Virus record (IMG/VR): IMGVR_UViG_2757320620_000001
Coordinates: 95,417-115,042 of that record
DNA from: a virus
Taxonomy: Duplodnaviria > Heunggongvirae > Uroviricota > Caudoviricetes
DNA length: 19,626 nucleotides
Reading direction: 5' to 3' (one strand)
Shown here: one piece after another, positions 1 to 13,760 of the stretch
How the letters are laid out: each line of letters begins with the position of its first letter
How positions within the stretch are numbered: the stretch's first letter is position 1
Made by a program: the position numbers and the translations under genes
Notes under the pieces: model-generated
Databases searched by the model: none
Told to the model about the DNA's origin: nothing
What the model saw: only the letters and a program-made list of their open reading frames with translations

Positions 1-491
1 AAAGACAATCGCACCACTCAAGCGCACTAAGCACACCACCGGCCTAGAGAGCACCATCACCCTATAGAACGACCATACCAAGCACTAAGCACCTAGAGAG
101 CCACTAAGCGTCTACTGGTGTAGGTGAGCGTGCATGCGTAGGTGTGTGGAGATAGAGAGGTGCTGTTGGAATTCTAAGCGTAGGGGTCGGTGGGCGGCGC
201 CGCGCCTCACACTCCTCCATCAACCGCTTCACCAGACCACCCGTAGCCGCGACACGCCGTTCGCATCCCGACCGCGTGCGTCTATCTTCTGCAGTGCGCG
301 AATGAATTGCGCAGCAAGCAGTCGTCCAGCTGCCTTGTTGATTACATGCAGCGTGGTCGATTTGGATAGCGGCCTTCCTCGAGGCGGGTTTTCGGACCTG
401 CCTCTCTTTTTGGCTTTTCGGAATTTTCAGGAACCACGAGCGCCGGAGCCATATACTGCCAAACGCCGGCACGCACCCTTTGAGCACCAAG

Positions 492-571
492 CCATGGTCG
501 ACCCATCGCCGGAACCATGGACAGCCTCGGATTGCCACGGCACGCCATGGATCACCGCGGACCAGCCACGG
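492..571. repeat. 10-bp-periodic CCNNGG array
   Basis: CCNNGG starts at 492, 515, 525, 535, 545, 555 and 566 (ggaaccatgg acagcctcgg attgccacgg cacgccatgg atcaccgcgg accagccacgg). Confidence 0.9.
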
Positions 572-620
572 CGGGCGGCTCCCGGCTCACTCCGGACGAT
601 CCTTCATTCCGGAGAGCTAA

Positions 621-681
621 TCCGGTCCGTCTCCCTTCATAGTTATTTATATCTAATAGTTATTTTATATATTGAAGGGAG
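621..681. repeat. AT-rich core flanked by CTCCCTTCA/TGAAGGGAG inverted arms, copy 1
   Basis: Shares an exact tccggtccgtctcccttc and atctaatagtta with the copy at 15186-15266. Confidence 0.85.
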
Positions 682-838
682 CAGGCGAATCTTGTGACAG
701 GATTGTGTCCGAGGATTACACTCCGGCACGAGAGACGCTCCAGCCCTTGCCAGATGTTTCGCCTACCCGAGACGCTCTATGTTCTGTTCATCGAAAGCGA
801 ACGACTTTCGACAAAACGTCAACAACATGGAGACAGTC

Positions 839-1537
839 ATGACCAAGAAGAACGCGTCCACGAAGACACCGGCCGGCAAGCAGTCCAGCGAACCGCAGGC
901 CTTCATATTCGACGATGCCATGAAGGCGGTGAACGAGGACGACGCCAAGGCGTTTGCGCTGACGATCGCTGCCGCCTTCGACGAGCGGGTGCAGTTCGAG
1001 ATCAGCCGCAAGGCGAACGGCTCGGCCGACATGCCCAAGGTGAAGAAGCTGAACGCCTATCGCAACAAGCTGGCGCTACCCTCGATGGCGCGCGTGCTGA
1101 TGGTGCTGAAGACCACGCCGGCGTTCATCAACGCTCGCCAGGGCAAGGAGGCCGACGGCGATCGCTTCAACATCTACGCCATCGACAAGGTCGTCGACTT
1201 CGTCCGGGCGCTCAGTGGGCACGCCAAGCTGTCGAACGCGCACAACGTGGCGATCGGCAAGTCGATGCTGAACTTCGAGGCGGCCGGCGCGACCTTCACC
1301 GGCGAGATGGCGATGTGCGCAGCCAGCGACAAGATCCGCAGCCAGGATCCAAACGCCAAGCTGCTGCGGCGCCACAACGTCGACAAGGCAACAGCCGGCA
1401 CCCAGGCGTCGTCGACACTGAACGCGATGATGGCGCTCGGTCTGATCGTCAACAAAGGCACCAAGCGGGCAGCCGCTTACGTCTTTGCCGAGACCGAGCA
1501 GGCCGGCGCATTCAAGGAGCTTCTGAAAGTCGTCTGA
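839..1537 (+). CDS. Hypothetical phage protein, 232 aa, possible C-terminal winged helix; paralog of 3779-4345
   Basis: GGAG RBS before the ATG at 839; host-like codon usage; followed by a terminator; colinear similarity to the 3779-4345 product. Confidence 0.85.
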   Translation: MTKKNASTKTPAGKQSSEPQAFIFDDAMKAVNEDDAKAFALTIAAAFDERVQFEISRKANGSADMPKVKKLNAYRNKLALPSMARVLMVLKTTPAFINARQGKEADGDRFNIYAIDKVVDFVRALSGHAKLSNAHNVAIGKSMLNFEAAGATFTGEMAMCAASDKIRSQDPNAKLLRRHNVDKATAGTQASSTLNAMMALGLIVNKGTKRAAAYVFAETEQAGAFKELLKVV

Positions 1538-1569
1538 CCCTCGCCGGGCAGACAACCGACAGAGAGGGG

Positions 1570-1603
1570 AAGGGCGGTGCTCGTGTGGGGTGCCGCCCTT
1601 TCT
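1570..1603 (+). terminator. Rho-independent terminator
   Basis: aagggcggtgc ... gtgccgccctt stem followed by a T-run, just after the 1537 stop. Confidence 0.7.
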
Positions 1604-1861
1604 GTGTGCGTTGGGTCAGCCATGGGGAACCACGGCGCATTTAGGCAAATATTGGGGAACCGGTGGGGTCCAAGGGACCGGCCGATGAGACAGTGCTCAT
1701 CGGCCTTGGGGCACCACGGTCCTTTGACCTCCCCTCGCCTACCCGTCACCATGGCGATCCATGGTCCCTCCTTCCCAATGCGTGCCATCGTTCGCCAGAT
1801 GTAATGCCTTGTTTGGTCGTGCGACTGTCTAATCGTCAACAACGCAACGAGAGACACCCAA

Positions 1862-2167
1862 ATGACCAACAGGCTTATCGACTGCGGCTTCCAAGATCAC
1901 AACAAGTTCGACGTCGGCATCGCCATCGACAAGAGCGAGATCGAGCCCATACGCAAGGAGATCACCACCTGGCGCGACCGCTATGGCAACGACCTCTTCC
2001 ACTCGCAGCCGCGGATCAAGGCCCATCGCGTCGCCTGGGACGTCGTGCTCGAGGGTGTGGTCCAGGAGACGACCGGTATGCCGGCCGCGATCGAGCTTGG
2101 CTCCGTCGAAGAGCTCATGTTCTTCTCCGGGCTCCTCGACAAGATGATGCGCAGCGCCGGCTACTGA
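1862..2167 (+). CDS. Hypothetical protein, 101 aa
   Basis: GAGAG RBS-like sequence, GC3-rich codons, closely followed by the next gene. Confidence 0.8.
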   Translation: MTNRLIDCGFQDHNKFDVGIAIDKSEIEPIRKEITTWRDRYGNDLFHSQPRIKAHRVAWDVVLEGVVQETTGMPAAIELGSVEELMFFSGLLDKMMRSAGY

Positions 2168-2177
2168 GGAGCCCGAC

Positions 2178-2468
2178 ATGGACATTCACTTCAACACCGG
2201 TCGCCTCTACACCAAAGAAGGCCAGGTCATACGCGCCGTCTGGGACAAGGAGAACGAGGTCATCCACTTCGCCGACACCTCGCGTGCCGTCAACGGCTCG
2301 ATCGAGGCGCCGGAGTGGGACATCAGCTTCACCACTCCGGGCGGCCTGGCGCGCTACGTGATGGAGCGCTACGACCGACACGCCTACAAGAGCAGTGCGC
2401 CCTCCTGGGAGCTCCTGATGATCAAGGGCCGCGATCCCGAGGCCCAGGTCCACCAGTTCACCCTCTAA
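2178..2468 (+). CDS. Hypothetical phage protein, 96 aa
   Basis: GAGGAG RBS, typical codon usage, terminator downstream. Confidence 0.85.
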   Translation: MDIHFNTGRLYTKEGQVIRAVWDKENEVIHFADTSRAVNGSIEAPEWDISFTTPGGLARYVMERYDRHAYKSSAPSWELLMIKGRDPEAQVHQFTL

Positions 2469-2474
2469 CAGCCG

Positions 2475-2498
2475 AGGCGCCCAGGTGGCGCCTTTTCT
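2475..2498 (+). terminator. Rho-independent terminator
   Basis: aggcgcc-caggt-ggcgcct followed by tttct. Confidence 0.75.
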
Positions 2499-2613
2499 GT
2501 GGGTGCGGGTTAGCCATGGCGCGGGAGCCGCCCATGGTCCCTCCTCGACCAGGCCATGGCAGGTCCAGGCGTCGCCAGGCCGGTGTGATCCTGCGCTCGC
2601 CAGATAGGACGCC

Positions 2614-2637
2614 TTCGCGAAATCGCTAAATTGCTAT
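2614..2637. promoter_or_regulatory. Tandem 8-mer (WTCGCTAW-type) cluster
   Basis: ttcgcgaa atcgctaa attgctat, upstream of the gene at 2663; one of 11 clusters. Confidence 0.7.
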
Positions 2638-2662
2638 TTATCGAAACAGCGAGAGCACGCAC

Positions 2663-2995
2663 ATGAACATCGCCGACTTCACCGCCAAGATCGTCGCAGT
2701 CGCCACTCAGAGTGACAACCAGGTCACGCCATTCGAAGGTGCTGACTGCTCGCCGCGGATCGAGACGTTTCTCTCGCCGGTCTACATCGGTATCTGGCTG
2801 CACCAGGCAGACACGGTGCAGTATCACCTCGAGATCTCGAACGTGGTTCAGCCTCATGCTTGGCTCGAAGATGGCGTTACGCGCGATGGCGTCGCGTCGA
2901 TCACCGCCTACACGACCTTCGCCGACGTGATGACCGCCTACAACGCCGTGATCACGCATATCGCCTCGAGCGAAGCGAACTTCCACCGCATCTAG
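2663..2995 (+). CDS. Hypothetical protein, 110 aa
   Basis: GAGAG RBS-like sequence; coding-like codon usage. Confidence 0.8.
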   Translation: MNIADFTAKIVAVATQSDNQVTPFEGADCSPRIETFLSPVYIGIWLHQADTVQYHLEISNVVQPHAWLEDGVTRDGVASITAYTTFADVMTAYNAVITHIASSEANFHRI

Positions 2996-3000
2996 CCAGA

Positions 3001-3028
3001 TTGCGCTAAATCGCTAATTCGCTAAACT
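3001..3028 (+). promoter_or_regulatory. Sigma70-like promoter overlapped by three 8-mer repeats
   Basis: TTGCGC-N16-TAAACT; the repeats tgcgctaa atcgctaa ttcgctaa fill the spacer. Confidence 0.55.
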
Positions 3029-3063
3029 GAGAGCGTCAACAACGAAGCGAGCAGGAGCTCAAC

Positions 3064-3237
3064 ATGTCTACCATCATTCCGGCGCCGACCACCGTCTATC
3101 GCATCAAGGAAATGACGCCGACCGAGTCCGCGTTCATGGCCGAGACCGCTGAAGCCTTCAAGACGGTATGCGCCTTCGTCGCCTTCATCATCTTCGTCTG
3201 CTCCGTCATCGCCCTCTGCATCATGATCAAGACCTAA
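3064..3237 (+). CDS. Small membrane protein, 57 aa, single C-terminal TM helix (not in the supplied ORF track)
   Basis: AGGAG RBS; translates as MSTIIPAPTT...VCAFVAFIIFVCSVIALCIMIKT*; terminator downstream. Confidence 0.75.
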   Translation: MSTIIPAPTTVYRIKEMTPTESAFMAETAEAFKTVCAFVAFIIFVCSVIALCIMIKT

Positions 3238-3268
3238 CCGCTTACGAAAGGAGCAACCCTACCAACCA

Positions 3269-3297
3269 GCCGGCGAGCCGCCTACTCGCCGGCATTT
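3269..3297 (+). terminator. Probable terminator
   Basis: gccggcgag-ccgccta-ctcgccggc followed by attt. Confidence 0.55.
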
Positions 3298-3458
3298 CCA
3301 TTTGCAGCTGGCGCCACGGAGAACCACGGTCTAAATTCCCAGGAACCGGCGCACTTGACGCCATGGCTTGCCATCCTCCGGCTGGTCCCTCGCCCCGCCT
3401 ACGTGACGCTCCATCTCCATCGCTCTCGATTGTATCGCACGCGAGCTAATCGCGCATG

Positions 3459-3487
3459 AAAAGAGCGCGCTAGATCTTAGCGCGCTC
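3459..3487 (-). terminator. Rho-independent terminator built without GG/CC
   Basis: gagcgcgcta-gatct-tagcgcgctc (10-bp stem); aaaa at 3459-3462 gives the U-tract on the minus strand. Confidence 0.75.
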
Positions 3488-3506
3488 GCGTTAGTCGCTC
3501 TTGCTG

Positions 3507-3701
3507 CTATTCGCTGTAACGCGTCTCATGACGCATATTCAGCATTTCATATATGTCTGTCTGCTGATAGTCGAACCGACGGTCCAGCAATTCCACACTG
3601 TCAGTCGTCGCGTTGCGCGTCTTGAAGTCGCGTCGCTTCTGTCTGTCTCTCAATTCGCGCTCTGTGAGCGATACGCGCGCGCTGCTATATGATTTGCTCA
3701 T
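3507..3701 (-). CDS. Probable small protein, 64 aa, second gene of the island transcript
   Basis: Lies between the 3779 stop and the 3459-3487 terminator; AAGAG RBS-like sequence; no recognisable family. Confidence 0.5.
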   Translation of the reverse strand: MSKSYSSARVSLTERELRDRQKRRDFKTRNATTDSVELLDRRFDYQQTDIYEMLNMRHETRYSE

Positions 3702-3778
3702 GTCTCTTGTCTCGCTTCTGTGACGCTGCTAGCGCGCTTTATGACGCGCTAGCTAAGTCAAGATTGATTGATCACGCG

Positions 3779-4345
3779 TTACGCTGCAAAGCGCGCTTCG
3801 ATCGCTTGCATAATCGCGTTGTCGTTGACAGTATACTTGTCTTTCGACGCTGCTTTCAGCAAGTTGAGCGCAACAAGAGCGCGCATGTTCATCGAAGCAT
3901 GACGCTTCGCAGAAGAGAATTCATCTTTGCGACGATAGTAAAGCGCGACGCGTTCTTTCGCGACTTTGATATTCTTGTCGAGCGCGATTTCAATGTCGCT
4001 TGCGCTGAACTGCTCACCAGCGCGCTTGAAGTTGACGAGCGTGCGCAGCACTTCTTCAACGTTGCTCTTGAGCTTGTCGACGTTGCGAGCGTTCGCAGCG
4101 AACTCGAGAATATGCGCGCAATTCTCGAGTGCTTTCATGCAGAACGCGCTGTTAGCTTGCACGCTGTCTTGTGCAAAGTCTGTCTTCACTTCGCACGCTT
4201 CGAGCATCTTCGCGACGCTGTCTTGTGTGACGACAAGCGCGCACTTCGATATGAAGTTGAGCGAGTTTGCAGACTTCTTTGCTGCAAGCTCTACGTCGTA
4301 GCGAGCAGACAGAGACAGTGCATATGCGTTAACAACTTTAGTCAT
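3779..4345 (-). CDS. GG/CC-free paralog of 839-1537, 188 aa (1 Gly, 0 Pro, 0 Trp)
   Basis: Start chosen at MTKVV after aaagagagaaacgatc. Aligns to 839-1537, e.g. AYALSLSARYD/AFALTIAAAFD, LVNFKRAGEQFS/MLNFEAAGATFT, ASMNMRALVALNLL/ASSTLNAMMALGLI. Confidence 0.85.
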   Translation of the reverse strand: MTKVVNAYALSLSARYDVELAAKKSANSLNFISKCALVVTQDSVAKMLEACEVKTDFAQDSVQANSAFCMKALENCAHILEFAANARNVDKLKSNVEEVLRTLVNFKRAGEQFSASDIEIALDKNIKVAKERVALYYRRKDEFSSAKRHASMNMRALVALNLLKAASKDKYTVNDNAIMQAIEARFAA

Positions 4346-4425
4346 GATCGTTTCTCTCTTTCGTGTTGACTGTCTAGCAGTCGTTGTTGACATGATCTTT
4401 AGACACTAGTTCGCAGCGTCATGCA

Positions 4426-4449
4426 ATAGCTATTTCGCTAAATCGCGAA
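4426..4449. promoter_or_regulatory. 8-mer cluster at the island promoter
   Basis: atagctat ttcgctaa atcgcgaa, abutting a TTGCAT -35-like box on the minus strand. Confidence 0.6.
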
Positions 4450-4816
4450 TTATTTTTCATAGCATAATTGCTATGTGATGATACGTGCGCATTGACTCAC
4501 AGAGACGCGCTGACACGCATAGACGCGTGAGCAGTGTCACGCGACACAGAAGCGCGTCGATCGATCCCTCGCGCTCGTGTGTGTCGCTGTGAAAGCGCGA
4601 CGTGCGAAGAGAAGCGAAGTCTTAGAGATTTTGCGTGTGGGTCAGCATGATGCCCACTGCTGCCCGGCAAATCCGGTGCTCCGACTACCTATCCCAGTGC
4701 CTTACCGGGACGGACAGCATGCCCTGGGTAGCGATCCGTCAACCAGATCCCCGGCGCCCAGGTTCCCCTGCCCCGCACCCCCGATTCCCGTGCCCAAGCT
4801 ACCCATCCTCTTTTCA

Positions 4817-4836
4817 CTCAATCAATATTGACTGAC
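4817..4836. promoter_or_regulatory. 20-bp palindromic operator (GTMARTMAATATTKAYTKAC), site A
   Basis: ctcaatcaatattgactgac, one mismatch to consensus; upstream of the gene at 4892. Confidence 0.75.
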
Positions 4837-4891
4837 CGTTAGCGCTCGGATAATGTCCTGGCAATTCCAACATGTGAGGATCCAATTTCCC

Positions 4892-5725
4892 ATGAATCTC
4901 TCTTTCCCTGCCCGCGGCCCCATCATCGTTCGCAAGGTGACGCGTGATGAACCGACGCGCATCATTGAAGCGCCGCTCGAGACAACCGTCGACACGTCGA
5001 TCCCTGGCATCGAATACCACAACAGCGCGACTGGTCCCTTTTTCATCGTTCGCGACGAGGCTGGAACGGCTCTCACCTACCGTGTCACCGAAATGACGGC
5101 GCCGGTCTGGGGTCCGCTCGAAACCAAGGGAACGCTTGTGGGAATCGAACATGCGCCGCAGGGCGTGATCTCGATCAAGGAGCACGACGACAAGCTTTCG
5201 GCCGCGATCGACATTGCCTTTGAGGCTGGTGTGCAGAACGAGCGCCAGGAGAACCAGGAAGCGGTCAAACGGATCGCCGCTGATTTGGTCACAACGCTCG
5301 ATGAGCCGAACAACGTTCTCATCGGCTTCACCGACGGGCAGTTTCTCGTGTTTCCTGACATTGTCGCCTACAGCGAGCTCGATGGTCAGCTGAGCCTGGA
5401 GACGACCGTGGGCAGCGTCATCAACGTGCATCCGTCCTGGCGCTCCTACGAGCTCGAGCCGATCACCGATGCGGTCGACGAGGACGATGATGATGTCGAG
5501 CTGATCAATCCGCTTGCGACGCTCGAAGGCGTGTCCAAGGGCGAAGCGGCCGGCTGTGGCTGTGACGTCTGTGATGCGGCGCGTGCGGAGGAACTCGCCA
5601 AGGCCGTCTGGGATGGCATCTGGGCTGACAAGAAGCTCGATCTCGCCTCGGTCGTGTCGGAGGGCGCGCGAACGTTCTGGAAGCCGCGCTATGGCCCGGT
5701 CGGCAACCGCATCGACGACGAATAA
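4892..5725 (+). CDS. Hypothetical acidic protein, 277 aa, with a CxCxxC motif
   Basis: GAGGA RBS before the ATG at 4892; GCGCDVC motif and an acidic run. Confidence 0.8.
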   Translation: MNLSFPARGPIIVRKVTRDEPTRIIEAPLETTVDTSIPGIEYHNSATGPFFIVRDEAGTALTYRVTEMTAPVWGPLETKGTLVGIEHAPQGVISIKEHDDKLSAAIDIAFEAGVQNERQENQEAVKRIAADLVTTLDEPNNVLIGFTDGQFLVFPDIVAYSELDGQLSLETTVGSVINVHPSWRSYELEPITDAVDEDDDDVELINPLATLEGVSKGEAAGCGCDVCDAARAEELAKAVWDGIWADKKLDLASVVSEGARTFWKPRYGPVGNRIDDE

Positions 5726-5748
5726 TCGCTAATTCGCCATTTCGCTAA
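5725..5748. promoter_or_regulatory. 8-mer cluster
   Basis: atcgctaa ttcgccat ttcgctaa. Confidence 0.7.
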
Positions 5749-5762
5749 ATCAGGAATTCGTT

Positions 5763-6143
5763 ATGCCCAACAAAGAACCCTCCCTCCCCTTCGGCTTCCC
5801 GCTCGAGGGCATTCCGCTCGCCGGCAAGTTCCCTGAGAAGGACGTCGTCATTCAGGGCGACACGATCTATGCCGGTCTGATCGCTCCAGATGTGACGCTC
5901 CACACTCCCCTCCCCGTGACCGGCTATACGCCCGTCGAAGACGACAAGGTTCAGCTCGTGAACTCGATCAAGATCGAAGAGGAACGCATCCTGCGCCGGC
6001 TCGACGAGCTGAAGGCGGGCGGCCAGAAATACGACCAGCGCTTCGTCGCGCTCGCCATGACCTACGTGCAGGTGGGTATGATGCTCGCCTACCGCGGCGT
6101 CTTCCAGCCGGAACGCATCACCCTGCCCGAGGACGCCGCATGA
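5763..6143 (+). CDS. acb2: Acb2/Tad1-hairpin-like nucleotide-signal sponge with an N-terminal extension
   Basis: C-terminal TGY...VQLVNSIK...LDEL...DQRFVALAMTYVQVGMMLAYRGVFQP matches the Acb2 pattern GY..N.IK..RW.AI..T..Q.G.M...RA..QP. Confidence 0.65.
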   Translation: MPNKEPSLPFGFPLEGIPLAGKFPEKDVVIQGDTIYAGLIAPDVTLHTPLPVTGYTPVEDDKVQLVNSIKIEEERILRRLDELKAGGQKYDQRFVALAMTYVQVGMMLAYRGVFQPERITLPEDAA

Positions 6144-6592
6144 GCGTTGTCGTCTATCACGACGGCGTGATGGCTGCCGACAGTCGAGCCTATTCGGGCT
6201 CGACGCACCCGGCCGGCCACAAGCGCAAGATCCACCGTCTGCCCGACGGTGGCCTGGTCGGGATTACGTCCAATCAGATCGGCATGCCGGAAGCGTTTCG
6301 CGACTGGCTGGCTGCCGGCGCAAACCGGGAAGCTTCTATGCCGAACGAGCCTGGCTTCGACGCCCTGCACGTCACGTCGGACGGCGAGGTCTTCCTCTAC
6401 AGCGACAGCTATACACCGTCTGGGCCGCTCTACGGCACGACCTTCACGATCGGCTCAGGCAAGGCATATGCCCTCGGCGCCCTCAAGGCCGGCGCTTCGG
6501 TCACAGAGGCCATCGAGATTGCCAAGGAATGCGACCTGTGGTGCGGCGGGCCGGTTATCGAACTGCCTCTCTACGAAGACACCAAACCCTGA
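6140..6592 (+). CDS. Ntn-hydrolase / proteasome beta-subunit-like peptidase with N-terminal Ser
   Basis: (M)SVVVYHDGVMAADSR, KRKI, TIGSG..A.GAL..GAS..EAI.IA..D...GGPV pattern; ATGA overlap with the upstream gene. Confidence 0.8.
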   Translation: MSVVVYHDGVMAADSRAYSGSTHPAGHKRKIHRLPDGGLVGITSNQIGMPEAFRDWLAAGANREASMPNEPGFDALHVTSDGEVFLYSDSYTPSGPLYGTTFTIGSGKAYALGALKAGASVTEAIEIAKECDLWCGGPVIELPLYEDTKP

Positions 6593-6601
6593 AAGGAACC
6601 C

Positions 6602-6790
6602 ATGTTCAATCTTCGTCTCCAACTTCGCCTGCTCGCTGCCGACGCGATCCGCTTCGTGGTCATCGCGCTGATTGTGCTGATTGCCCTGCTGATCGGCGCC
6701 GGGCTGTTCTTTGTCGGTCTGCCGCTGATCCTTCTGATCTTGCTGGTCTTCGCTCTCTGGGCGCTCGCCGGCTCTGTCGCGCCGCGATAG
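6602..6790 (+). CDS. Small hydrophobic membrane protein, 62 aa
   Basis: AAGGA RBS; long hydrophobic stretch consistent with 2 TM segments. Confidence 0.75.
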   Translation: MFNLRLQLRLLAADAIRFVVIALIVLIALLIGAGLFFVGLPLILLILLVFALWALAGSVAPR

Positions 6791-6810
6791 CGATTTCGCT
6801 AAATCACGAA
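6787..6810. promoter_or_regulatory. 8-mer cluster downstream of the par operon (candidate parS)
   Basis: atagcgat ttcgctaa atcacgaa. Confidence 0.6.
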
Positions 6811-6816
6811 ATAAAG

Positions 6817-6841
6817 AAAGGGCGGTTTCGACCGCCCTTTT
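6817..6841. terminator. Bidirectional terminator
   Basis: aaagggcggt-ttcg-accgcccttt between convergent genes. Confidence 0.85.
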
Positions 6842-6846
6842 CGTTG

Positions 6847-7125
6847 TCAGCCGCGGCGTGATGCCGTCCAGGCGTCGAAGCACTGCTCGAGCAGCTCCTT
6901 CATTGATAGCCCGGCCGCGGTCGCCGTCATCTTGAAGCGGGTGTGAAACTCCGGATCGACCTTGAAATTCAGGTCGCGCAGCTTGACCTCTTCCATGTTG
7001 TCGGCAGCCTCGATCTTCGGCTCGTCGACCAGGCTACCGAGGAACTTCATGCCGCCTGTCTGCTCCCTCGGCCGGATATTGGCCTTGGTCACTGCAGTCG
7101 TCTTTGTGGCTACTGGTCTTTTCAT
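6847..7125 (-). CDS. ParG/omega-like ribbon-helix-helix centromere-binding protein, 92 aa
   Basis: C-terminal DLNFKVDPEFHTRFKMTATAAGLSMKELLEQ has the beta-alpha-alpha RHH pattern; overlaps the parA stop. Confidence 0.8.
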   Translation of the reverse strand: MKRPVATKTTAVTKANIRPREQTGGMKFLGSLVDEPKIEAADNMEEVKLRDLNFKVDPEFHTRFKMTATAAGLSMKELLEQCFDAWTASRRG

Positions 7126-7763
7126 GCGGCTACCTGCAGGGAGTTGAGCTTGTCGACGATCTCGGCTGCGAGCCGGTCGGCGCGATCATTGAGCGAGGAA
7201 TAGAGCGTCTCGGCAATCGAGAAGCCACGGTTCTGGGCCATCTGATAACCGGTCTTCGACGTGATATCGGTCTCGGCGACTTCAAAGCCCTGCTCCCGGA
7301 TGAATCCTGCCGCCTCGCGAGACGCCAGGTCGCTTTCAGTCGTCTTGTTGAGGACGAAGAGCAGCTTGTGGCGCGCAACGCCCTTGTTGGCGAGCTCGTG
7401 GGCGAAAGCGATCTGTGGTTTCAGGTCGTCGCGAGTGGCGCCGGTCGGTATGATCACGACGTCGGCGATCTGAGCTGCGTCCAGGGACGTCTGCTGGCTG
7501 TCCGGCGCCCCGTCGATAACAAGCAGGTCATGACGCTCTGCCTTCACCTTCTTGACGGAGTTCATCGGCTGGGCCTCGATCACCGGCTCGATGTTGGCGA
7601 TCATCCGGATTGCCACCCAGTCGGTCGAGGTGAGCTGGTTGACGTTGAAGTCGCAGATCTTCACCGACCAGCCGACGGAAGCGAAGGTGCGCGCCAGGAG
7701 CCGGGCGATCGTCGATTTGCCGACGCCACCTTTCTGAGACAGACATGCGATGATGGTTGCCAT
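7122..7763 (-). CDS. parA: Short type Ib ParA (ParF-like) ATPase, 213 aa
   Basis: Deviant Walker A QKGGVGKST, ICDFN, VIDGAP, VIIPT; lacks an N-terminal HTH. Confidence 0.95.
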   Translation of the reverse strand: MATIIACLSQKGGVGKSTIARLLARTFASVGWSVKICDFNVNQLTSTDWVAIRMIANIEPVIEAQPMNSVKKVKAERHDLLVIDGAPDSQQTSLDAAQIADVVIIPTGATRDDLKPQIAFAHELANKGVARHKLLFVLNKTTESDLASREAAGFIREQGFEVAETDITSKTGYQMAQNRGFSIAETLYSSLNDRADRLAAEIVDKLNSLQVAA

Positions 7764-7807
7764 TTCGCGAAATCCCTATGTCGTTAATTCGCTAAATCTT
7801 TAGCGCC
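7756..7807. promoter_or_regulatory. Five in-register 8-mers over the parA start (autoregulatory operator / centromere)
   Basis: gttgccat ttcgcgaa atccctat gtcgttaa ttcgctaa, then ttagcgcc. Confidence 0.7.
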
Positions 7808-7973
7808 TAATGGTTAACGAAAATTTACGGGATTGGGAAGGGCGGGGCGACGCGGCCCATTTGCGTCAACAACGAACAAACACGACAGCGCCGGCATCTT
7901 GGGAGATCAGCGCTGGAGAGGTTCTAGGGCCGCGTCGAAACCTACATAGGCCGACGCCGGCCGGGCTTCAAGA

Positions 7974-8330
7974 TCAGTGGGGAATGAAGTCGCGCTGGTC
8001 GAAGAGGAATTCGTATTCGTCGATATCACCGGCGATGATCGCCGGCCGGGTGACGCGATAGCCGAGATTGATTGGATCCTCGTTGACACTGCAGATGCGC
8101 GGATCGACTTGCAGCATATTGATGATCCATTCCTGGATCTCAAGGCCGCTGCGCATCAGGTCGGCTCGATCGACAAGGTCGGTCTGGGTCGTTAGCGAAA
8201 ACGCTCTTTCGCTAAATGCGACCGCATTTCCAGCCTCATCGCGCTCGGCAAGCCTGATAACGCGCTCGTGCTTAGGTGCGCTGATATTCAGCGCACCCAC
8301 CTTCCGTCGTTGAAACCGAACCTCGATCAA
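7974..8330 (-). CDS. Hypothetical protein, 118 aa
   Basis: Overlaps the stop of the upstream kinase gene (ATGA-type coupling). Confidence 0.75.
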   Translation of the reverse strand: MIEVRFQRRKVGALNISAPKHERVIRLAERDEAGNAVAFSERAFSLTTQTDLVDRADLMRSGLEIQEWIINMLQVDPRICSVNEDPINLGYRVTRPAIIAGDIDEYEFLFDQRDFIPH

Positions 8331-8893
8331 AACACCGGCCCAATCACGTCGATCAGCTTATTCATCAGGTCGAGCCGGGCATCTTCCGGCGACAGACCGC
8401 GCGCCAGGCCGTCGTTCTGGATCTGGCGATCGGCATAGGCCGGATTGTAGGTGTCGAACTCATACTGCGACGGGCCGGCGAGGGGATTGACGATCTCGAG
8501 CACCAGAGCGCCCTGTTCCTTCCAGTAGCGACCCTGCTCGCGCCGGACGGAGCCGAACACCGAGAACTGGCCCTTGGGCTGGGCGTTGTGGCTCATGATC
8601 GGGATGATGTCGCCACCGAATTTCTCTTCGAAGGCATTACCGATTTCGCCGAGCACCTCACGCACCTGCCACTGCCGGCCGTTGATGGTGACGTATTCGA
8701 GCTTGCCGGCCTGGGTGAACACCTGGTCGGGCGTCAGGCCGAGATAGTCGATGGCGATTTTGCGGAGAGGGAGGCCGTCATCGGCGAGCTTGTGGCCGTA
8801 GAGGTCATTGATGATTTCGGCGGCCGTCGATTTGCCCGAGGTCGGGTTGCCACAGAGGGCGATTAGTTTGGGGTAGGGGGTCGGGTTTGACAC
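8327..8893 (-). CDS. Deoxynucleoside monophosphate kinase-like P-loop protein
   Basis: LIALCGNPTSGKST Walker A; pattern PLRKIA...REVLGEIG...SVRREQ; GTG start at 8893 after AAGGAG. Confidence 0.75.
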   Translation of the reverse strand: MSNPTPYPKLIALCGNPTSGKSTAAEIINDLYGHKLADDGLPLRKIAIDYLGLTPDQVFTQAGKLEYVTINGRQWQVREVLGEIGNAFEEKFGGDIIPIMSHNAQPKGQFSVFGSVRREQGRYWKEQGALVLEIVNPLAGPSQYEFDTYNPAYADRQIQNDGLARGLSPEDARLDLMNKLIDVIGPVF

Positions 8894-8908
8894 TTTTGCT
8901 CCTTTGCA

Positions 8909-8928
8909 GTCAGTCAATATTTACTTAC
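8909..8928. promoter_or_regulatory. 20-bp palindromic operator, site B
   Basis: gtcagtcaatatttacttac, perfect match to consensus. Confidence 0.8.
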
Positions 8929-8970
8929 TGCAAAGGAGCGTTTTAGGGAAGGCGCGAAATAGCGATTTCG

Positions 8971-9144
8971 CTAATTCTCCTGCTCGAGAAGGCCGCGGTT
9001 CTTGGCGCGCTCGACAAGCCGGGTCAGCCGCTCATTGTCGGCGCGCAGCTTCTCGATCACCTCGAGGTAGAAGACCTCGCTGACGGCCGACAGGCCGCAG
9101 GAGTTGAAGAAGTGGATCGGGTCGACGAGGCGCTGCTGGCTCAT
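8971..9144 (-). CDS. Small coiled-coil hypothetical protein, 57 aa
   Basis: AAGGA RBS; the ATG overlaps the helicase TGA. Confidence 0.65.
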   Translation of the reverse strand: MSQQRLVDPIHFFNSCGLSAVSEVFYLEVIEKLRADNERLTRLVERAKNRGLLEQEN

Positions 9145-10739
9145 GCTGCTTTCCTTTGTGCTGCGAAGATCTGCCAGGGGAAGTCCTCGTTCGCCGGCAA
9201 GATGTTCTCCCGGAAGCCGGGCGTGGATTTGACGATGTTCTTGCGTTCGGCCGTGTGCTCGGCGAGCGCAATGTTGTTGGCGCATGAATAGTCGGCGATG
9301 AAGGCATAGTTCGGCATATTTTTCTTGGCGCGCAGCCCGCGGCCGATCCGCTGACGCAATGCCACTTCCGCCTTGCCACCACCGGCAAGCTGCACCAGGC
9401 CGATACCGGGCACGTCAACGCCGACATCGACGATCGTCGAGCCGATGATCGCGTCGATTTCGCCGGCCTCGAGCTGCGACAGGGCGGCCTGGCGCTCCTT
9501 CTGGTCGTTCTCACCACGCAGGAACACCGTGCGCAGCCCGACATGGGTGAACTTCTTGAAGAGGATCTCGCCATGATCCATGCGCTGGATCAGCGTCAGC
9601 ACCGGCAGCCCGTAGCGCTTCGCCATCAGCGCGTCACGCACGATATCCTTGTGCATGAAGCCGTTCTCGATATAGCCGAACTGATAGGCGCGCGCCCAGG
9701 GCGACGAGCGGAACAGCATCTTGTGCGGCTGCGACGTCACGTATTTGAAGATCGGCTTGGCAAGCACGCCGGACTCGATCAGCTGCTCCTCGGTGATGCG
9801 GATCAGCACCGAGCCGAAAGCGGCCATCAGGCGCATGTTGTCTTCGGCGCTGGAGCGCATGAACGGCGTTGCGGTGAGCGCCACCCGGATCGTCGCGTTC
9901 TTGCAGTGCTTGAGGATCTCGTAATAGCTGTTGCCGCCCGCCTCATGGGCTTCCTCGCCGATGACCACGTCGATCAGCTCGAGGAACTTCAAATAGCGAT
10001 TTCGCTTTTTCGTCTTTTCGTCAAAGCGCGCCTGGGCCAGTTCGCGGATCTGCTCCTTCGGCATATTCGCATCCTTCTTCTTCGAACGATGCTGCGACTT
10101 GGTGACGGCGATGATCTCCTTCTGCAGGTTCGGCTCCTCGAGCGCTTCGACGAGCGTCTGCACCATGGCGAGGTTGACGCCCTTGACCATCTTCTCCTTG
10201 CCGTCGCCGATGACGCCGGTGTTGAGATCGAGCGCGTCGAGCTGCTCCTTCATTTGGTAGAGCAGCACCTTGCGCGTCGTCAGGAAGAGGGTAGGGCGCC
10301 GGTAGCGCAGCATGATCATCTTGGCGATCTTCGATTTGCCACCGCCCGTTGCGACCTGGATGATGCCGCGGCCGAACTTCTCGACGCGCCGCAAGCTCTC
10401 CGGCTGGTGAGCGTAGCGCGGATCGTCATTGCCGAATGCATCGACGATCGGATTTTCGGGGCCGAGCGGCTCGACGGCCTTCTTCCGGAAGATCTGCACC
10501 TTGTAGCCGAGCCGCATCAGCTCCTTGTGGACCATGAAGGCAAAGCCGGCCGGGAAGGAGTTGGTCTTGTATTCGTAGAAGGACGATTTGCCATCCCAGG
10601 TGCCCTGGTTGAACGCAAAGGTCTGCTCGGCGCCGTCGACCAGGTAGGAGAGCAGGTCCGAAACGGTGTCGGCGACCTTCTCGGGCGGGTCGAGCAGCTG
10701 GGCGGTGACTGCGTTGTAGGCCAGTTTGATCAAAGTCAT
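9141..10739 (-). CDS. Superfamily 2 DNA helicase (UvsW/XPB-like), 532 aa
   Basis: ATGGGKS, VIGEEAH, LTATP, GSTIVDVGVDVP and QRIGRGLR motifs. Confidence 0.9.
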   Translation of the reverse strand: MTLIKLAYNAVTAQLLDPPEKVADTVSDLLSYLVDGAEQTFAFNQGTWDGKSSFYEYKTNSFPAGFAFMVHKELMRLGYKVQIFRKKAVEPLGPENPIVDAFGNDDPRYAHQPESLRRVEKFGRGIIQVATGGGKSKIAKMIMLRYRRPTLFLTTRKVLLYQMKEQLDALDLNTGVIGDGKEKMVKGVNLAMVQTLVEALEEPNLQKEIIAVTKSQHRSKKKDANMPKEQIRELAQARFDEKTKKRNRYLKFLELIDVVIGEEAHEAGGNSYYEILKHCKNATIRVALTATPFMRSSAEDNMRLMAAFGSVLIRITEEQLIESGVLAKPIFKYVTSQPHKMLFRSSPWARAYQFGYIENGFMHKDIVRDALMAKRYGLPVLTLIQRMDHGEILFKKFTHVGLRTVFLRGENDQKERQAALSQLEAGEIDAIIGSTIVDVGVDVPGIGLVQLAGGGKAEVALRQRIGRGLRAKKNMPNYAFIADYSCANNIALAEHTAERKNIVKSTPGFRENILPANEDFPWQIFAAQRKAA

Positions 10740-12820: not shown

Positions 12821-13461
12821 CCATCTACACCATCAATTGCGGCTTCACCTCGTCGGTGGAGCGCAGCCCGCGCGTGCTGGAGATTGCCGAGTCCTTCGGG
12901 CTGGGACTGGCCGAGAAGCGGTTTGAGATCTACCGCGATCTTGCGCTCGATATCCGCGACGACGACGTGATCTATATCAACGGTCAGTCCGGCTCCGGTA
13001 AATCGCTGCTGCTGCGCGAGCTGACCCGCCAGATGCGCGAGCAGGGCAGGGTGGTCGCTGACCTGAACGAGGTGGTGCTTGATGACCGGCCGGTGATCGA
13101 CCAGCTCGGCAAGACCAGCAGCGACGCCCTCTATCTGCTTGCATGCGCCGGGATCTCCGACGCCTGGATCTATATCCGCAAGCCCTCGGAGCTCTCCGAC
13201 GGCCAGCGTTATCGTCTGAAGCTGGCAAAGGTCATGGAGACCGACGCCGATGTCTGGGTCGCCGACGAGTTCGGCGCCGTGCTCGACCGCGTCACAGCCA
13301 AGGCGATCGCCATGAGCGTCCAGAAGGTCGCTCGCCAGCGAGGCAAGAGCCTCATCGTCGCAACCACCCACACCGACCTCGAAGCCGAGCTGGCGCCGAA
13401 CCTCGCCGTCTACAAGCGCTTCAAGGAAAAGGTCGATATCACCAAAGGAGAAGCAGCATGA
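12817..13461 (+). CDS. Soluble ABC-type ATPase (COG2401-like N-terminal half), 214 aa
   Basis: GQSGSGKS Walker A, LSDGQ signature, VADEF Walker B, ATTH H-loop; no TM partner. Confidence 0.9.
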   Translation: MTIYTINCGFTSSVERSPRVLEIAESFGLGLAEKRFEIYRDLALDIRDDDVIYINGQSGSGKSLLLRELTRQMREQGRVVADLNEVVLDDRPVIDQLGKTSSDALYLLACAGISDAWIYIRKPSELSDGQRYRLKLAKVMETDADVWVADEFGAVLDRVTAKAIAMSVQKVARQRGKSLIVATTHTDLEAELAPNLAVYKRFKEKVDITKGEAA

Positions 13462-13760
13462 ACCTCGGTCAAGCCCTTGAGGCGGTAAAAGATGGCAAGC
13501 GGGCGGCCCGCGCCGGCTGGAATGGCAAGAAGATGTTCGTCTTCCTGATGCCGGGCTCGGCGCCGCGGTCGACCGAAGTCACCACACGCGACGGCGTCGA
13601 CCTGATCAACAACGTCCGGGGCGATCTCTTTACCGACGGCGACGAAGGCACATCGATCCGGATGCCGTCTTTCTGCCTGAAGGCGGCCGACGGCTCGACG
13701 GTTGTCGGTTGGGCGGCCTCGCAGGCCGACATGGGCGCCGAAGACTGGGAGCTCGTCTGA
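13458..13760 (+). CDS. tad2: DUF2829 / Tad2-like nucleotide-signal sponge, 100 aa
   Basis: MNLGQALEAVKDGKRAARAGWNGKKMF ... GWAASQADMGAEDW: both family signature ends are present; AAGGAG RBS. Confidence 0.8.
   Translation: MNLGQALEAVKDGKRAARAGWNGKKMFVFLMPGSAPRSTEVTTRDGVDLINNVRGDLFTDGDEGTSIRMPSFCLKAADGSTVVGWAASQADMGAEDWELV

Follow-up and report, generated by a model that had tools for sequence, protein, structure and literature searches.

An operon nearly free of GG and CC dinucleotides at what appears to be a virion DNA end of a phage-plasmid

Analysis of a 19,626-nucleotide stretch of the genome of a Rhizobium phage-plasmid (Caudoviricetes; positions 95,417 to 115,042 of IMG/VR virus record IMGVR_UViG_2757320620_000001; hereafter the window) revealed a 1220-bp island from which GG and CC dinucleotides are almost entirely missing. 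The island is a complete leftward two-gene operon, consisting of a promoter, a gene for a protein of 188 amino acids (P0001), a gene for a protein of 64 amino acids (P0002) and a terminator (Table 1). To our knowledge, an operon purged of one dinucleotide on both strands is undescribed, and a full-text literature search found no description of such a cassette. Comparison with related phages indicates that the purge is maintained by strong, continuing and long-lasting selection, and that this selection acts on the DNA itself and not on protein, codon or RNA needs.

Table 1. Features of the island and its surroundings (coordinates are positions in the window).
Feature	Coordinates	Strand	Basis or remarks
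GG/CC-free island	3419..4638	no strand	7 GG/CC in 1220 bp; homologous islands
Intrinsic terminator of the operon	3463..3487	-	10-bp stem without GG/CC, followed by a T-run
P0002 gene, 64 aa	3507..3701	-	no family match; codon-position substitution bias
Palindromic operator copy AGTCAAGATTGATT	3756..3769	no strand	genome-wide phage operator; intergenic in the operon
P0001 gene, 188 aa	3779..4345	-	1 Gly, 0 Pro, 0 Trp; predicted winged helix
Leader and likely promoter	4346..4426	-	sequence reading and invariant columns of alignment A1
Margin upstream of the promoter, outside the operon transcript	4427..4614	no strand	GG/CC-free except CCC at 4566-4568
12-mer CGAAGTCTTAGA	4615..4626	+	right edge of the island
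Conserved GG/CC-rich block GATGCC .. CCGGTG .. CCTATCC	4627..4800	no strand	predicted repeat-end region
Normally coded 252-aa gene	779..1537	+	in the same predicted terminal repeat; hhalign

A total of seven GG/CC dinucleotides (six CC and one GG, starting at 3576, 3581, 3584, 3593, 4017, 4566 and 4567) were found in the island, against 159 expected from its mononucleotide composition. An earlier reading of this DNA made from the sequence alone (hereafter the sequence-only reading) had counted the same seven against roughly 150, and the clean runs it gave (3419-3575, 3595-4016 and 4019-4565) are correct. GC content of the island is 51%, compared with ~60% in the surrounding DNA, and with the lower GC corrected for, the binomial probability of the depletion is <1e-40. 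Across the whole 115,042-bp genome, the other 1220-bp windows (n=1115) contain 135-200 GG/CC (mean 169, sd 14.5). No second depleted window was found in this sliding-window check, every other one having at least 135, and the island is thus the sole such segment in a genome where GG/CC is common elsewhere. Observed/expected GG/CC is ~0.78 outside the island, so that depletion is not spread genome-wide, unlike CRISPR PAM depletion. The sharp boundaries claimed by the sequence-only reading were also found, with observed/expected values of ~1.0 in the left flank and 1.1-1.24, the maximum of the window, in the right flank; the left side, too, is bordered by G-tract or GG/CC-rich blocks in both phage clades that carry the island.

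No dinucleotide class other than GG/CC is abnormal within the island, and CG (138), GC (144), TT (100) and TC (104) are abundant, as had been stated. Palindromic sites are plentiful (GCGCGC 9, ACGCGT 4, CTCGAG 2 and GATC 7). GCGC-type words are not enriched above dinucleotide expectation, and AGACAG/CTGTCT is the only over-represented word (9 vs 0.9), partly owing to an internal protein repeat. Class-by-class counts agree with the earlier claim that coding DNA, non-coding DNA and codon junctions are all affected: codon positions 1-2 and 2-3 hold two GG/CC among 254 codons, codon junctions hold none in P0001 (31 expected) and three in P0002 (10 expected), and the three non-coding parts of the island together hold two (59 expected). 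The purge extends into about 40-250 bp of flanking DNA on each side of the operon, such as ~210 bp upstream of the promoter in the window and ~195 bp past the terminator in the related phage V1VFA-S. It is because junctions, non-coding DNA and these untranscribed margins are all purged that selection is placed at the DNA level.

Both island genes are under strong purifying selection, with substitutions at codon positions 3:2:1 distributed 47:5:4 in P0001 and 16:4:3 in P0002; the latter pattern indicates that P0002 is a real coding gene. The terminator hairpin is conserved in both clades. Between the genes, a GCTAGCGCG hairpin precedes the operator copy AGTCAAGATTGATT, which is invariant in alignment A1. 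The promoter likely lies within the 81 bp assigned to the leader, with a candidate -35 element TTGCAT (4426-4421) and a candidate -10 element TCTAAA (4403-4398); an invariant leader block contains two GTCAAC boxes followed by a purine-rich ribosome site without GG. In the upstream margin, the CCC at 4566-4568 is kept by all four close relatives. The 12-mer CGAAGTCTTAGA at the right edge is invariant, occurs once per genome and is identical between the clades. Neither Rfam nor tRNA scanning found an RNA gene in the window; directly downstream of the island, relatives have a tRNA-Trp or a CCA pseudo-tRNA.

Homologous islands were identified in Y2_11, N1_10, N1_15, X66, V1VFA-S, B1VFA and IMG/VR contigs. 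Four relatives with 81-88% identity (12-19% nucleotide divergence) retain the purge. Comparison of the window with Y2_11 revealed 159 differences, transitions and transversions being about equal; 27% of random substitutions in the island would create GG/CC, and ~44 new GG/CC would be expected, of which six are present. The second clade (X66, V1VFA-S and B1VFA) has a GG/CC-free island in the same place, from 0.85 kb in B1VFA to 1.28 kb in V1VFA-S, and the main island protein shows remote homology across the clades (hhalign probability 90%, E 1e-6, 24% identity). Insertions of 170 and 332 bp that are specific to a lineage lack GG/CC as well. The island is syntenic across the two clades, as it is in phage-plasmids resident in Rhizobium species. 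Strong selection for a GG/CC-free unit, as proposed in the sequence-only reading, is thus upheld at homologous loci in both clades, the purge having survived 12-19% nucleotide divergence and protein identity down to 24%. The syntenic locus of the Escherichia coli phage-plasmid Cyrano shows only weak depletion (observed/expected 0.4-0.5), which means that not every member of the wider group has the trait. Profile comparison detected no homology between CYRAN_113 and P0001, and a profile search of genome contigs with the P0001 alignment confirmed no locus. A search of sequencing runs gave one metagenome match, with a small share.

P0001 is predicted to be a winged-helix DNA-binding protein, the modelled fold (pLDDT 91) being helical in its N-terminal half, with the winged helix in the C-terminal part. 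Neither island protein matched Pfam or PHROGs, and a protein atlas search gave unnamed clusters only. Foldseek against the PDB found no match at E<=0.001, a VIA-wide structure search gave generic winged-helix matches only (Z 6-7), and no ORF of this genome could be assigned to AlphaFold DB matches of 257 and 325 aa. The 252-aa gene in the same predicted repeat is possibly, on a weak profile match (hhalign E 0.022 over 118 columns), a distant paralogue of P0001; the corresponding X66 pair gave a blastp E of 0.15, and blastp of the ORF at 694-1644, which is in a different frame from this gene, found nothing. A prophage immunity operon would encode a DNA-binding master repressor transcribed against the lytic genes, with operators; the island operon has a winged helix, the opposite orientation and an operator copy. 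In Cyrano, however, the expressed master repressor lies near CobT, and the place matching that locus near CobT is occupied by another DNA-binding gene in the phages studied here.

The island appears to be the last ~1.2-1.3 kb of a direct terminal repeat and thus a physical end of the virion DNA, a location that adds to the view given in the sequence-only reading. The argument is arithmetic, based on the fixed termini and repeats of 3605 bp in B1VFA and 3939 bp in V1VFA-S (the latter length estimated from coverage) reported in PMC12509600. Whole-genome comparison showed that the best 3939-bp V1VFA-S window matching 3605 bp of B1VFA is off by 1 bp; it starts at 20977-21166, ends at 24915-25104 and is the only one with non-coding ends. 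The V1VFA-S island (23662-24940) holds a 330-bp indel that the repeat window must include. A second arithmetic solution, off by 7 bp, exists inside structural genes. Terminal position is carried over to the phage in the window through synteny and the shared 12-mer: by V1VFA-S homology, the right repeat end is predicted to fall anywhere from ~20 bp ahead of the island edge to ~170 bp past it, and the 12-mer coincides with the predicted repeat-end edge in both clades. A ATGTTGACAG array is present at the opposite border of the repeat, and no cut-site motif common to both borders was found. Such a location would explain the payoff of a local purge. Over the remaining ~2.5 kb of the predicted repeat GG/CC occurs at normal levels, which would leave a T5-like first-step transfer of the entire repeat unprotected.

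The wider genome shows avoidance of a different kind. GTAC is absent against 119 expected, and TGGCCA, CCCGGG, CACGTG and GTGCAC are all absent. Ordinary hazards, those of true restriction-type sites, are thus met by avoidance across the genome, whereas GG/CC is avoided locally, as would be expected if the hazard depended on position or time. GG/CC is abundant in all other genes of the phage and in most of its promoter cassettes; many operator cassettes have GG/CC immediately next to the operator, and no general purge of promoter-leader cassettes was seen in this genome. Nearly all genes of the phage are oriented rightward. An Acb2/Tad1-like anti-defence gene lies just right of the repeat (5763-6143), and a ParB-ParB-ABC ATPase-GNAT run, also present in Cyrano, lies beside the terminase genes. 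The phage encodes a homologue of the T5 A1 protein (PHROG 1745, E 5e-165) in the middle of its genome. The A1 nuclease was considered as the reader of GG/CC and rejected, since the A1-bearing phages RHEph27 and Spc35 have no purged island and the A1 gene here is outside the repeat.

A purge held for so long points to a strong agent, probably one with two-base specificity, and some activity probably reads GG/CC on island DNA. The explanation we prefer, tentatively and short of thinking it probable, is that a first-entering pre-early operon is kept free of the target of a GG/CC-dependent activity. The island would form the extreme right end of virion DNA, with an inward-reading promoter that lies a few hundred bases from the tip, and would probably be the first DNA into the cell, as suggested by proximity to the terminase genes, temporal gene order and T5-like architecture. 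Some host or phage activity may cut, bind or mark DNA at GG/CC steps while the island is alone and exposed in the cell; a segment without GG/CC would escape it, and the island products could act before the remaining genome is at risk. Purifying selection on double-stranded DNA would then preserve the absence of GG/CC. This explanation is supported by T5-like traits, namely the terminal repeat, the non-coding repeat region at its inner end and the A1 homologue. No GG/CC-specific enzyme was recognised in this genome, which counts against it, and rightward genes with anti-defence genes right of the repeat would fit left-end-first entry equally. The broader proposal, that phage-plasmids or their hosts possess an undescribed dinucleotide-specific activity on double-stranded GG/CC at DNA entry or at the genome end, is doubtful; we know of no defence system, nuclease or modification with two-base specificity for GG/CC. 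Such an activity could belong to a nuclease or nickase, to a modification enzyme, or to a coating or silencing protein, and the phage would have responded by spelling its first operon, down to the encoded proteins, without GG/CC.

An unlikely alternative is that the last-packaged and first-ejected DNA must be GG/CC-free for reasons intrinsic to the phage. The island could be a 'no-cut runway', with a terminase nuclease armed by head filling cutting in the GG/CC-rich block past the 12-mer, or the rigid, most A-philic GG/CC steps could disturb motor stalling, the start of ejection or a nucleoprotein end cap. This would fit a right edge that coincides with the predicted repeat end and the invariant 12-mer and beyond which the window reaches its highest GG/CC content, as well as the GG/CC-rich or G-tract blocks to the left in both clades. 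It would also fit a purge that is strand-symmetric, operates at the level of the dinucleotide step whichever genes lie there, and tracks phage lineage. The imprecision of head-full sensing resembles the island length, ~1% of the genome. However, the island always stops at the terminator region and its length tracks operon content, not distance from the end. Bulk mechanics should tolerate scattered GG/CC and hardly justifies proteins without glycine, proline and tryptophan; the repeat borders share no cut-site motif, and no terminase with a GG/CC requirement is known to us.

The sequence-only reading had suggested a base modification: a phage-made mark at GG/CC on virion DNA would block host RNA polymerase, and the operon would be expressed because it lacks a modifiable site. 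We consider this quite unlikely, and our analysis gave it no support, although it would account for a purge that affects both strands alike at the DNA level and is limited to the first-expressed unit, and many phage genes have no known function, including the ParB-ParB-ABC ATPase-GNAT run. We recognised no base-modification genes in the annotations of Y2_11, V1VFA-S and B1VFA, which leave most genes without a named product; the annotations of relatives include no methyltransferase, transglycosylase, glycosyltransferase or other known modification gene. A weak additional argument is that Illumina libraries made by enzymatic fragmentation assembled normally (PMC12509600). Moreover, GG/CC occurs in all other early-looking genes and in most promoter cassettes, which would then be silent, and the ParB-ABC-GNAT module occurs in Cyrano, which has no strict island.

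Avoidance of CRISPR-Cas targeting has a slimmer chance. Type I-F (CC), some type I-B and type II-A (NGG) systems use GG/CC as their PAM, and the first-injected end is a hot spot of spacer capture and the most effective CRISPR target; a PAM-free leading end would escape capture and targeting until counter-measures are made. No other two-base recognition element is well known from conflicts between phage and host, and this reading would explain why the purge is restricted to the entering end, in keeping with T5, which is CRISPR-sensitive in its first-step DNA only. Against it, the rest of the terminal repeat is unpurged, CRISPR-Cas is uncommon in Rhizobium, and the types of Rhizobiales mostly use other PAMs. 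The PAM depletion known to us is weak and genome-wide and never absolute.

It is very improbable that the purge serves the messages, either by sparing them cleavage by an RNase at GG or CC or by keeping them translatable when tRNAs with CC- or GG-containing anticodons (Gly, Pro, Trp and others) are disabled. Codons containing GG or CC are all read by anticodons containing CC or GG, the island proteins lack proline and tryptophan and nearly lack glycine (one in P0001), relatives carry the tRNA-Trp or CCA pseudo-tRNA, and ribosome-binding sites are also without GG. Nevertheless, codon junctions (0 vs 31) and non-coding DNA (2 vs 59) are equally purged, GG and CC are both missing though only one strand is known to be transcribed, and the purge reaches past both promoter and terminator. 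Least credible of all is a mutational footprint, such as CC-specific cytosine deamination of an often single-stranded segment, or a foreign low-GC island: the GC drop from 60% to 51% is about that expected from removal of all GG/CC by G/C-to-A/T changes, and DNA ends do get resected to single strands, but half of the differences between relatives are transversions, which largely refutes it, relatives have CG, AC or TT opposite the residual sites, and not deamination products alone, two GG/CC sites are shared by all four close relatives, both genes are under strong purifying selection, and recent import is contradicted by an island syntenic and conserved in two clades.

Among known systems, T5 shares with this phage a direct terminal repeat whose ends are fixed and whose inner end carries a non-coding repeat region; both encode an A1-family protein, and in both a target is locally absent from the DNA thought to enter first: first-entering T5 DNA has no EcoRI sites, T5 sensitivity to CRISPR is confined to first-step-transfer DNA, and how that DNA escapes A1-dependent breakdown is an open question. 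However, T5 avoids one 6-bp site and has normal GG/CC in its first-step DNA (observed/expected 1.06 in the T5-like Spc35), whereas the purge in this phage concerns a dinucleotide, has cost it three amino acids and covers no more than the outer third of the repeat, and the A1 gene is mid-genome instead of in the repeat. A promoter near a physical end that reads inward to a small first gene, with protection through the timing of DNA entry, is known from T7, which makes Ocr before its restriction sites enter, and is proposed here. T7 nevertheless relies on an expressed inhibitor and site positions rather than a dinucleotide purge, and since the operon here terminates after 1 kb, transcription alone could not pull the genome in. 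Avoidance of restriction sites or PAMs likewise selects a short target out of phage DNA, and its classical form is found in this genome too; known cases, however, involve 4-8-bp sites or weak genome-wide PAM depletion, whereas the island purge concerns two bases, is near-absolute and local, and overrides protein composition and Shine-Dalgarno sequences. Chloroviruses have frequent-cutting enzymes, such as Nt.CviPII at CCD, some of them virion-borne and degrading host DNA. These viral nucleases and methylases read two or three bases and are active at the start of infection, but there the whole genome is guarded by methylation, and no homologue was recognised here.

With the island placed at the virion end, what was an oddity of composition becomes a model, open to test, of how infection by a widespread family of phage-plasmids begins in its first seconds, and one with a link to the unsolved T5 problem. 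The island is also a natural case of the limits of protein recoding, a predicted winged helix (pLDDT 91) being built with one glycine and no proline. If the model is true, a reader of GG/CC would serve as a model for how the first-entering DNA of T5 escapes the destruction that hits host DNA.

Recounting of GG/CC dinucleotides in the island (positions 3419-4638 of the window; 1220 bp, 51% GC) fully confirmed the seven claimed in the sequence-only reading: six CC and one GG were found, against 159 predicted from base composition. Analysis of 1115 other 1220-bp windows across the whole 115,042-bp genome revealed at least 135 GG/CC in every window (range 135-200, mean 169, sd 14.5). No second GG/CC-poor island was found. 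Other dinucleotide classes showed no anomaly in the island, and the increase in CG and GC is just what a ban on GG/CC forces. The left flank is normal, and the right flank has GG/CC observed/expected values of 1.1-1.24, the top of the window. The hexamer AGACAG/CTGTCT occurs nine times in 3419-4638 (0.9 expected from dinucleotide-preserving shuffles); a QDSV peptide repeat in P0001, the larger island protein, accounts for part of this excess.

The window, the final 19.6 kb of the genome, is 81-91% identical to the ~116-kb Rhizobium siphophages RHph_Y2_11, Y2_17_1, N1_10, N1_15 and N2_6, and RHph_X66, V1VFA-S and B1VFA (the X66 clade) are more distant matches. These phages carry repC, parA and ParB-like genes. 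Assemblies of Rhizobium lentis, R. azibense and Pararhizobium qamdonense contain ~116-kb contigs that encode P0001 homologues, so plasmid prophage is a second state of the family. Two proteins of anti-defence type are encoded in the window: one of 126 aa that carries an Acb2/Tad1 hairpin domain (E 5e-13; 5763-6143, plus strand), ~1.1 kb right of the island, and a Tad2-like (DUF2829) protein (E 5e-23; 13458-13760, plus strand) in the gene run preceding terminase.

GG/CC content at the homologous loci was low, not normal, in both clades. The Y2_11, N1_10 and N1_15 islands are just as empty (5-6 GG/CC in 1220-1390 bp), and syntenic GG/CC-free runs were found in X66 (432+336 bp), V1VFA-S (1279 bp) and B1VFA (851 bp). 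BLAST found no similarity between the main island protein of the X66 clade and P0001; profile comparison (probability 90%, E 1e-6, 24% identity over 163 columns) indicates a remote homologue, and the GG/CC rule has therefore outlived nearly all sequence similarity. Insertions confined to one lineage are GG/CC-free as well (170 bp in N1_15; in V1VFA-S 332 bp, including a further gene of 85 aa), and IMG/VR relatives retain the island, one of them with a helicase just 58% identical. Among possible single substitutions in the island, 27% would create GG or CC, so that ~44 new sites would be expected from the 159 differences that separate the window from Y2_11; six lineage-specific sites were found in both sequences together. 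Transitions equal transversions among these differences, residual sites line up with CG, AC or TT in relatives, and the GG at 3581 and CCC at 4566 are retained in all four close relatives, a pattern that does not fit a deaminase-type footprint. The earlier claim of strong selection is thus borne out, and the comparisons indicate neither chance nor mutation as the origin of the purge.

As claimed earlier, the depletion covers coding DNA, non-coding DNA and codon junctions. GG/CC at codon junctions numbered 0 in the P0001 gene (31 expected) and 3 in the gene of the smaller protein, P0002 (10 expected), and three non-coding island parts held 2 against 59 expected. The purge includes ~210 bp upstream of the candidate promoter and, in V1VFA-S, continues ~195 bp past the terminator; GG and CC are both missing, though reading is known for one strand only. 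These observations go beyond what codon, tRNA or RNase effects could explain, and the constraint acts on DNA. General restriction avoidance was rejected as the cause, since the island is rich in palindromic sites (GCGCGC 9, ACGCGT 4, TCGCGA 3, CTCGAG 2, GATC 7) and classical avoidance spans the whole genome, where GTAC is absent (~119 expected), TGGCCA, CCCGGG, CACGTG and GTGCAC each number 0, and CTAG is depleted fivefold, with 5 of 31 copies inside the island. Ordinary hazards are met genome-wide; the GG/CC hazard counts in the island alone. Promoter cassettes in general are not purged in this genome, and many hold GG/CC next to the operator.

The island contains two leftward genes, while the remaining genes are nearly all rightward. 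Differences from relatives at codon positions 3:2:1 number 47:5:4 in the P0001 gene and 16:4:3 in the P0002 gene, so both are real genes; an antisense long ORF (3689-4369) showed the opposite pattern. Pfam and PHROGs gave no family match for either protein. The AlphaFold model of P0001 (19-sequence alignment as input, pLDDT 90.7) confidently predicts helices in the N-terminal half and a winged helix in the C-terminal part; it resembles generic winged-helix domains among solved structures (Z 6-7) and uncharacterised proteins only in AlphaFold DB. The product of 779-1537 is a possible distant paralogue of P0001, with a weak hhalign match (E 0.022).

Features of the island (window coordinates) and the A1 homologue
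Feature	Position	Direction	Remarks
Residual GG/CC starts	3576, 3581, 3584, 3593, 4017, 4566, 4567		
Terminator	3487-3463	leftward	10-bp stem without GG/CC; hairpin kept in both clades
P0002 gene	3507-3701	leftward	64 aa
Copy of the phage's dispersed palindromic operator	3756		between P0001 and P0002 genes
P0001 gene	3779-4345	leftward	188 aa; 1 Gly, 0 Pro, 0 Trp
Ribosome site	upstream of ATG at 4345	leftward	purine-rich, without GG
Invariant block with two GTCAAC boxes	upstream of ATG at 4345		
Candidate promoter TTGCAT-17-TCTAAA	4426-4398	leftward	plausible by sequence
Full-length T5 A1 homologue (L029)	G000:C1:23883-25742		after lysis genes, outside terminal repeat

B1VFA has fixed termini with a direct terminal repeat of 3605 bp, and V1VFA-S a repeat of 3939 bp, with coordinates given for neither (PMC12509600, Gunathilake et al.). 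The complete genomes, 92-95% identical, were compared by unique-word anchors, and the B1VFA counterpart length was computed for each 3939-bp V1VFA-S window; the required difference is 334. Two places lay within 12 bp of it: one, off by 7 bp, within the capsid-to-tape-measure genes, and one, off by 1 bp, with its start at 20977-21166, within a non-coding region of 1.2 kb, and its end at 24915-25104. The second exists only because it takes in a 330-bp indel within the V1VFA-S island (23662-24940), which is therefore the final ~1.3 kb of the repeat; by length arithmetic the right end of the repeat falls within an interval from 25 bp before to 164 bp past the island edge. The 12-mer CGAAGTCTTAGA (4615-4626), invariant in both clades with one copy per genome, lies exactly at the right edge, followed in both by conserved GG/CC-rich words. 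The left flank is GG/CC-rich in both clades. In the X66 clade the island adjoins a G-tract array, its compositional opposite (CCTAGGG(G), AGGGCAAGG, GGGGAACGG; ~13430-13640 of locus L007, with equivalents in L006 and L008), and the window clade has a different, invariant GG/CC-rich block at 3330-3418.

Judging from these repeat lengths, the island would form the extreme right end of virion DNA in this phage, with the promoter near the tip reading inward and a second copy 2.4-3.9 kb from the left end. The GTCAAC boxes (4366-4391) resemble ATGTTGACAG boxes of an array at ~95113-95240 of the genome, near the other predicted repeat border, so that one DNA-binding protein may mark both. Three indirect arguments make it probable that the right end is packaged last and ejected first: terminase genes are close to the left end; the order from the right is small early genes, nucleotide and replication genes, structural genes; and the non-coding repeat region would then occupy the repeat's inner end, like the T5 injection-stop region. 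Against this, most genes are rightward and anti-defence genes lie just right of the repeat.

The local, near-absolute and strand-symmetric purge is, tentatively, best explained as target avoidance in DNA that probably reaches the cell before all other phage DNA and is then alone there. Every GG/CC would be a separate chance of attack by something acting early, and the remainder of the genome would be safe once operon products or later events have acted. It is a weakness that the other 2.5 kb of the repeat keeps GG/CC. Packaging or end mechanics would account for the island meeting the repeat end and for the GG/CC-rich flanks, but leave unexplained the strictness of the purge and its tracking of operon length, and are an unlikely cause. 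The base modification of virion DNA proposed earlier, blocking host RNA polymerase at GG/CC with the island unmodified, found no support: no candidate enzyme is among the annotated products of Y2_11, V1VFA-S and B1VFA, it would silence all other genes, and we consider it improbable. A ParB-ABC-GNAT module, considered as writer, also occurs in the E. coli phage-plasmid Cyrano, whose syntenic leftward CYRAN_112/113 (L033 1557-2494; Cyrano 99556-100493) occupy a patch of 38% GC in which GG/CC is only partly depleted (observed/expected 0.39-0.5) and encode proteins containing Gly, so some members of the wider SSU5-like group lack the strict purge. Avoidance of PAMs at the injected end has an attractive logic, but to our knowledge CRISPR types with GG/CC PAMs are rare in rhizobia; this reading is judged slightly less likely still. 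RNA-level and mutational causes are largely excluded, the former by the purged junctions, non-coding DNA and margins beyond promoter and terminator, the latter by the substitution pattern, the conserved sites and the deficit of new GG/CC.

For target avoidance the closest precedent is T5: EcoRI sites are missing from its first-step DNA, the sole part of that phage that is CRISPR-sensitive. Its escape from the host DNA degradation driven by A1, the 'DNA transfer protein', is unsolved, and site-free first-step DNA has been proposed. The A1 homologue of these Rhizobium phages (PHROG 1745, E 5e-165; 30% identity to T5-group A1) has an extra ~150-aa N-terminal part resembling helix-turn-helix. A1 was rejected as the GG/CC-recognising activity: its gene is mid-genome, first-step GG/CC is normal (observed/expected 1.06) in the T5-like Salmonella phage Spc35, and the A1-bearing podophage RHEph27 lacks any such island. 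The Spc35 first-step repeat (1-9573) stands apart from 9574-30000 in other dinucleotides, with CG 1.37, GC 1.50 and AG/CT 0.76 against 0.80, 1.10 and 1.10. No description of a GG/CC-purged island turned up in full-text literature searches. The purge would be a new and extreme form of target avoidance in phage DNA that enters first, and there is a sizeable chance that a hitherto undescribed GG/CC-reading activity lies behind it.
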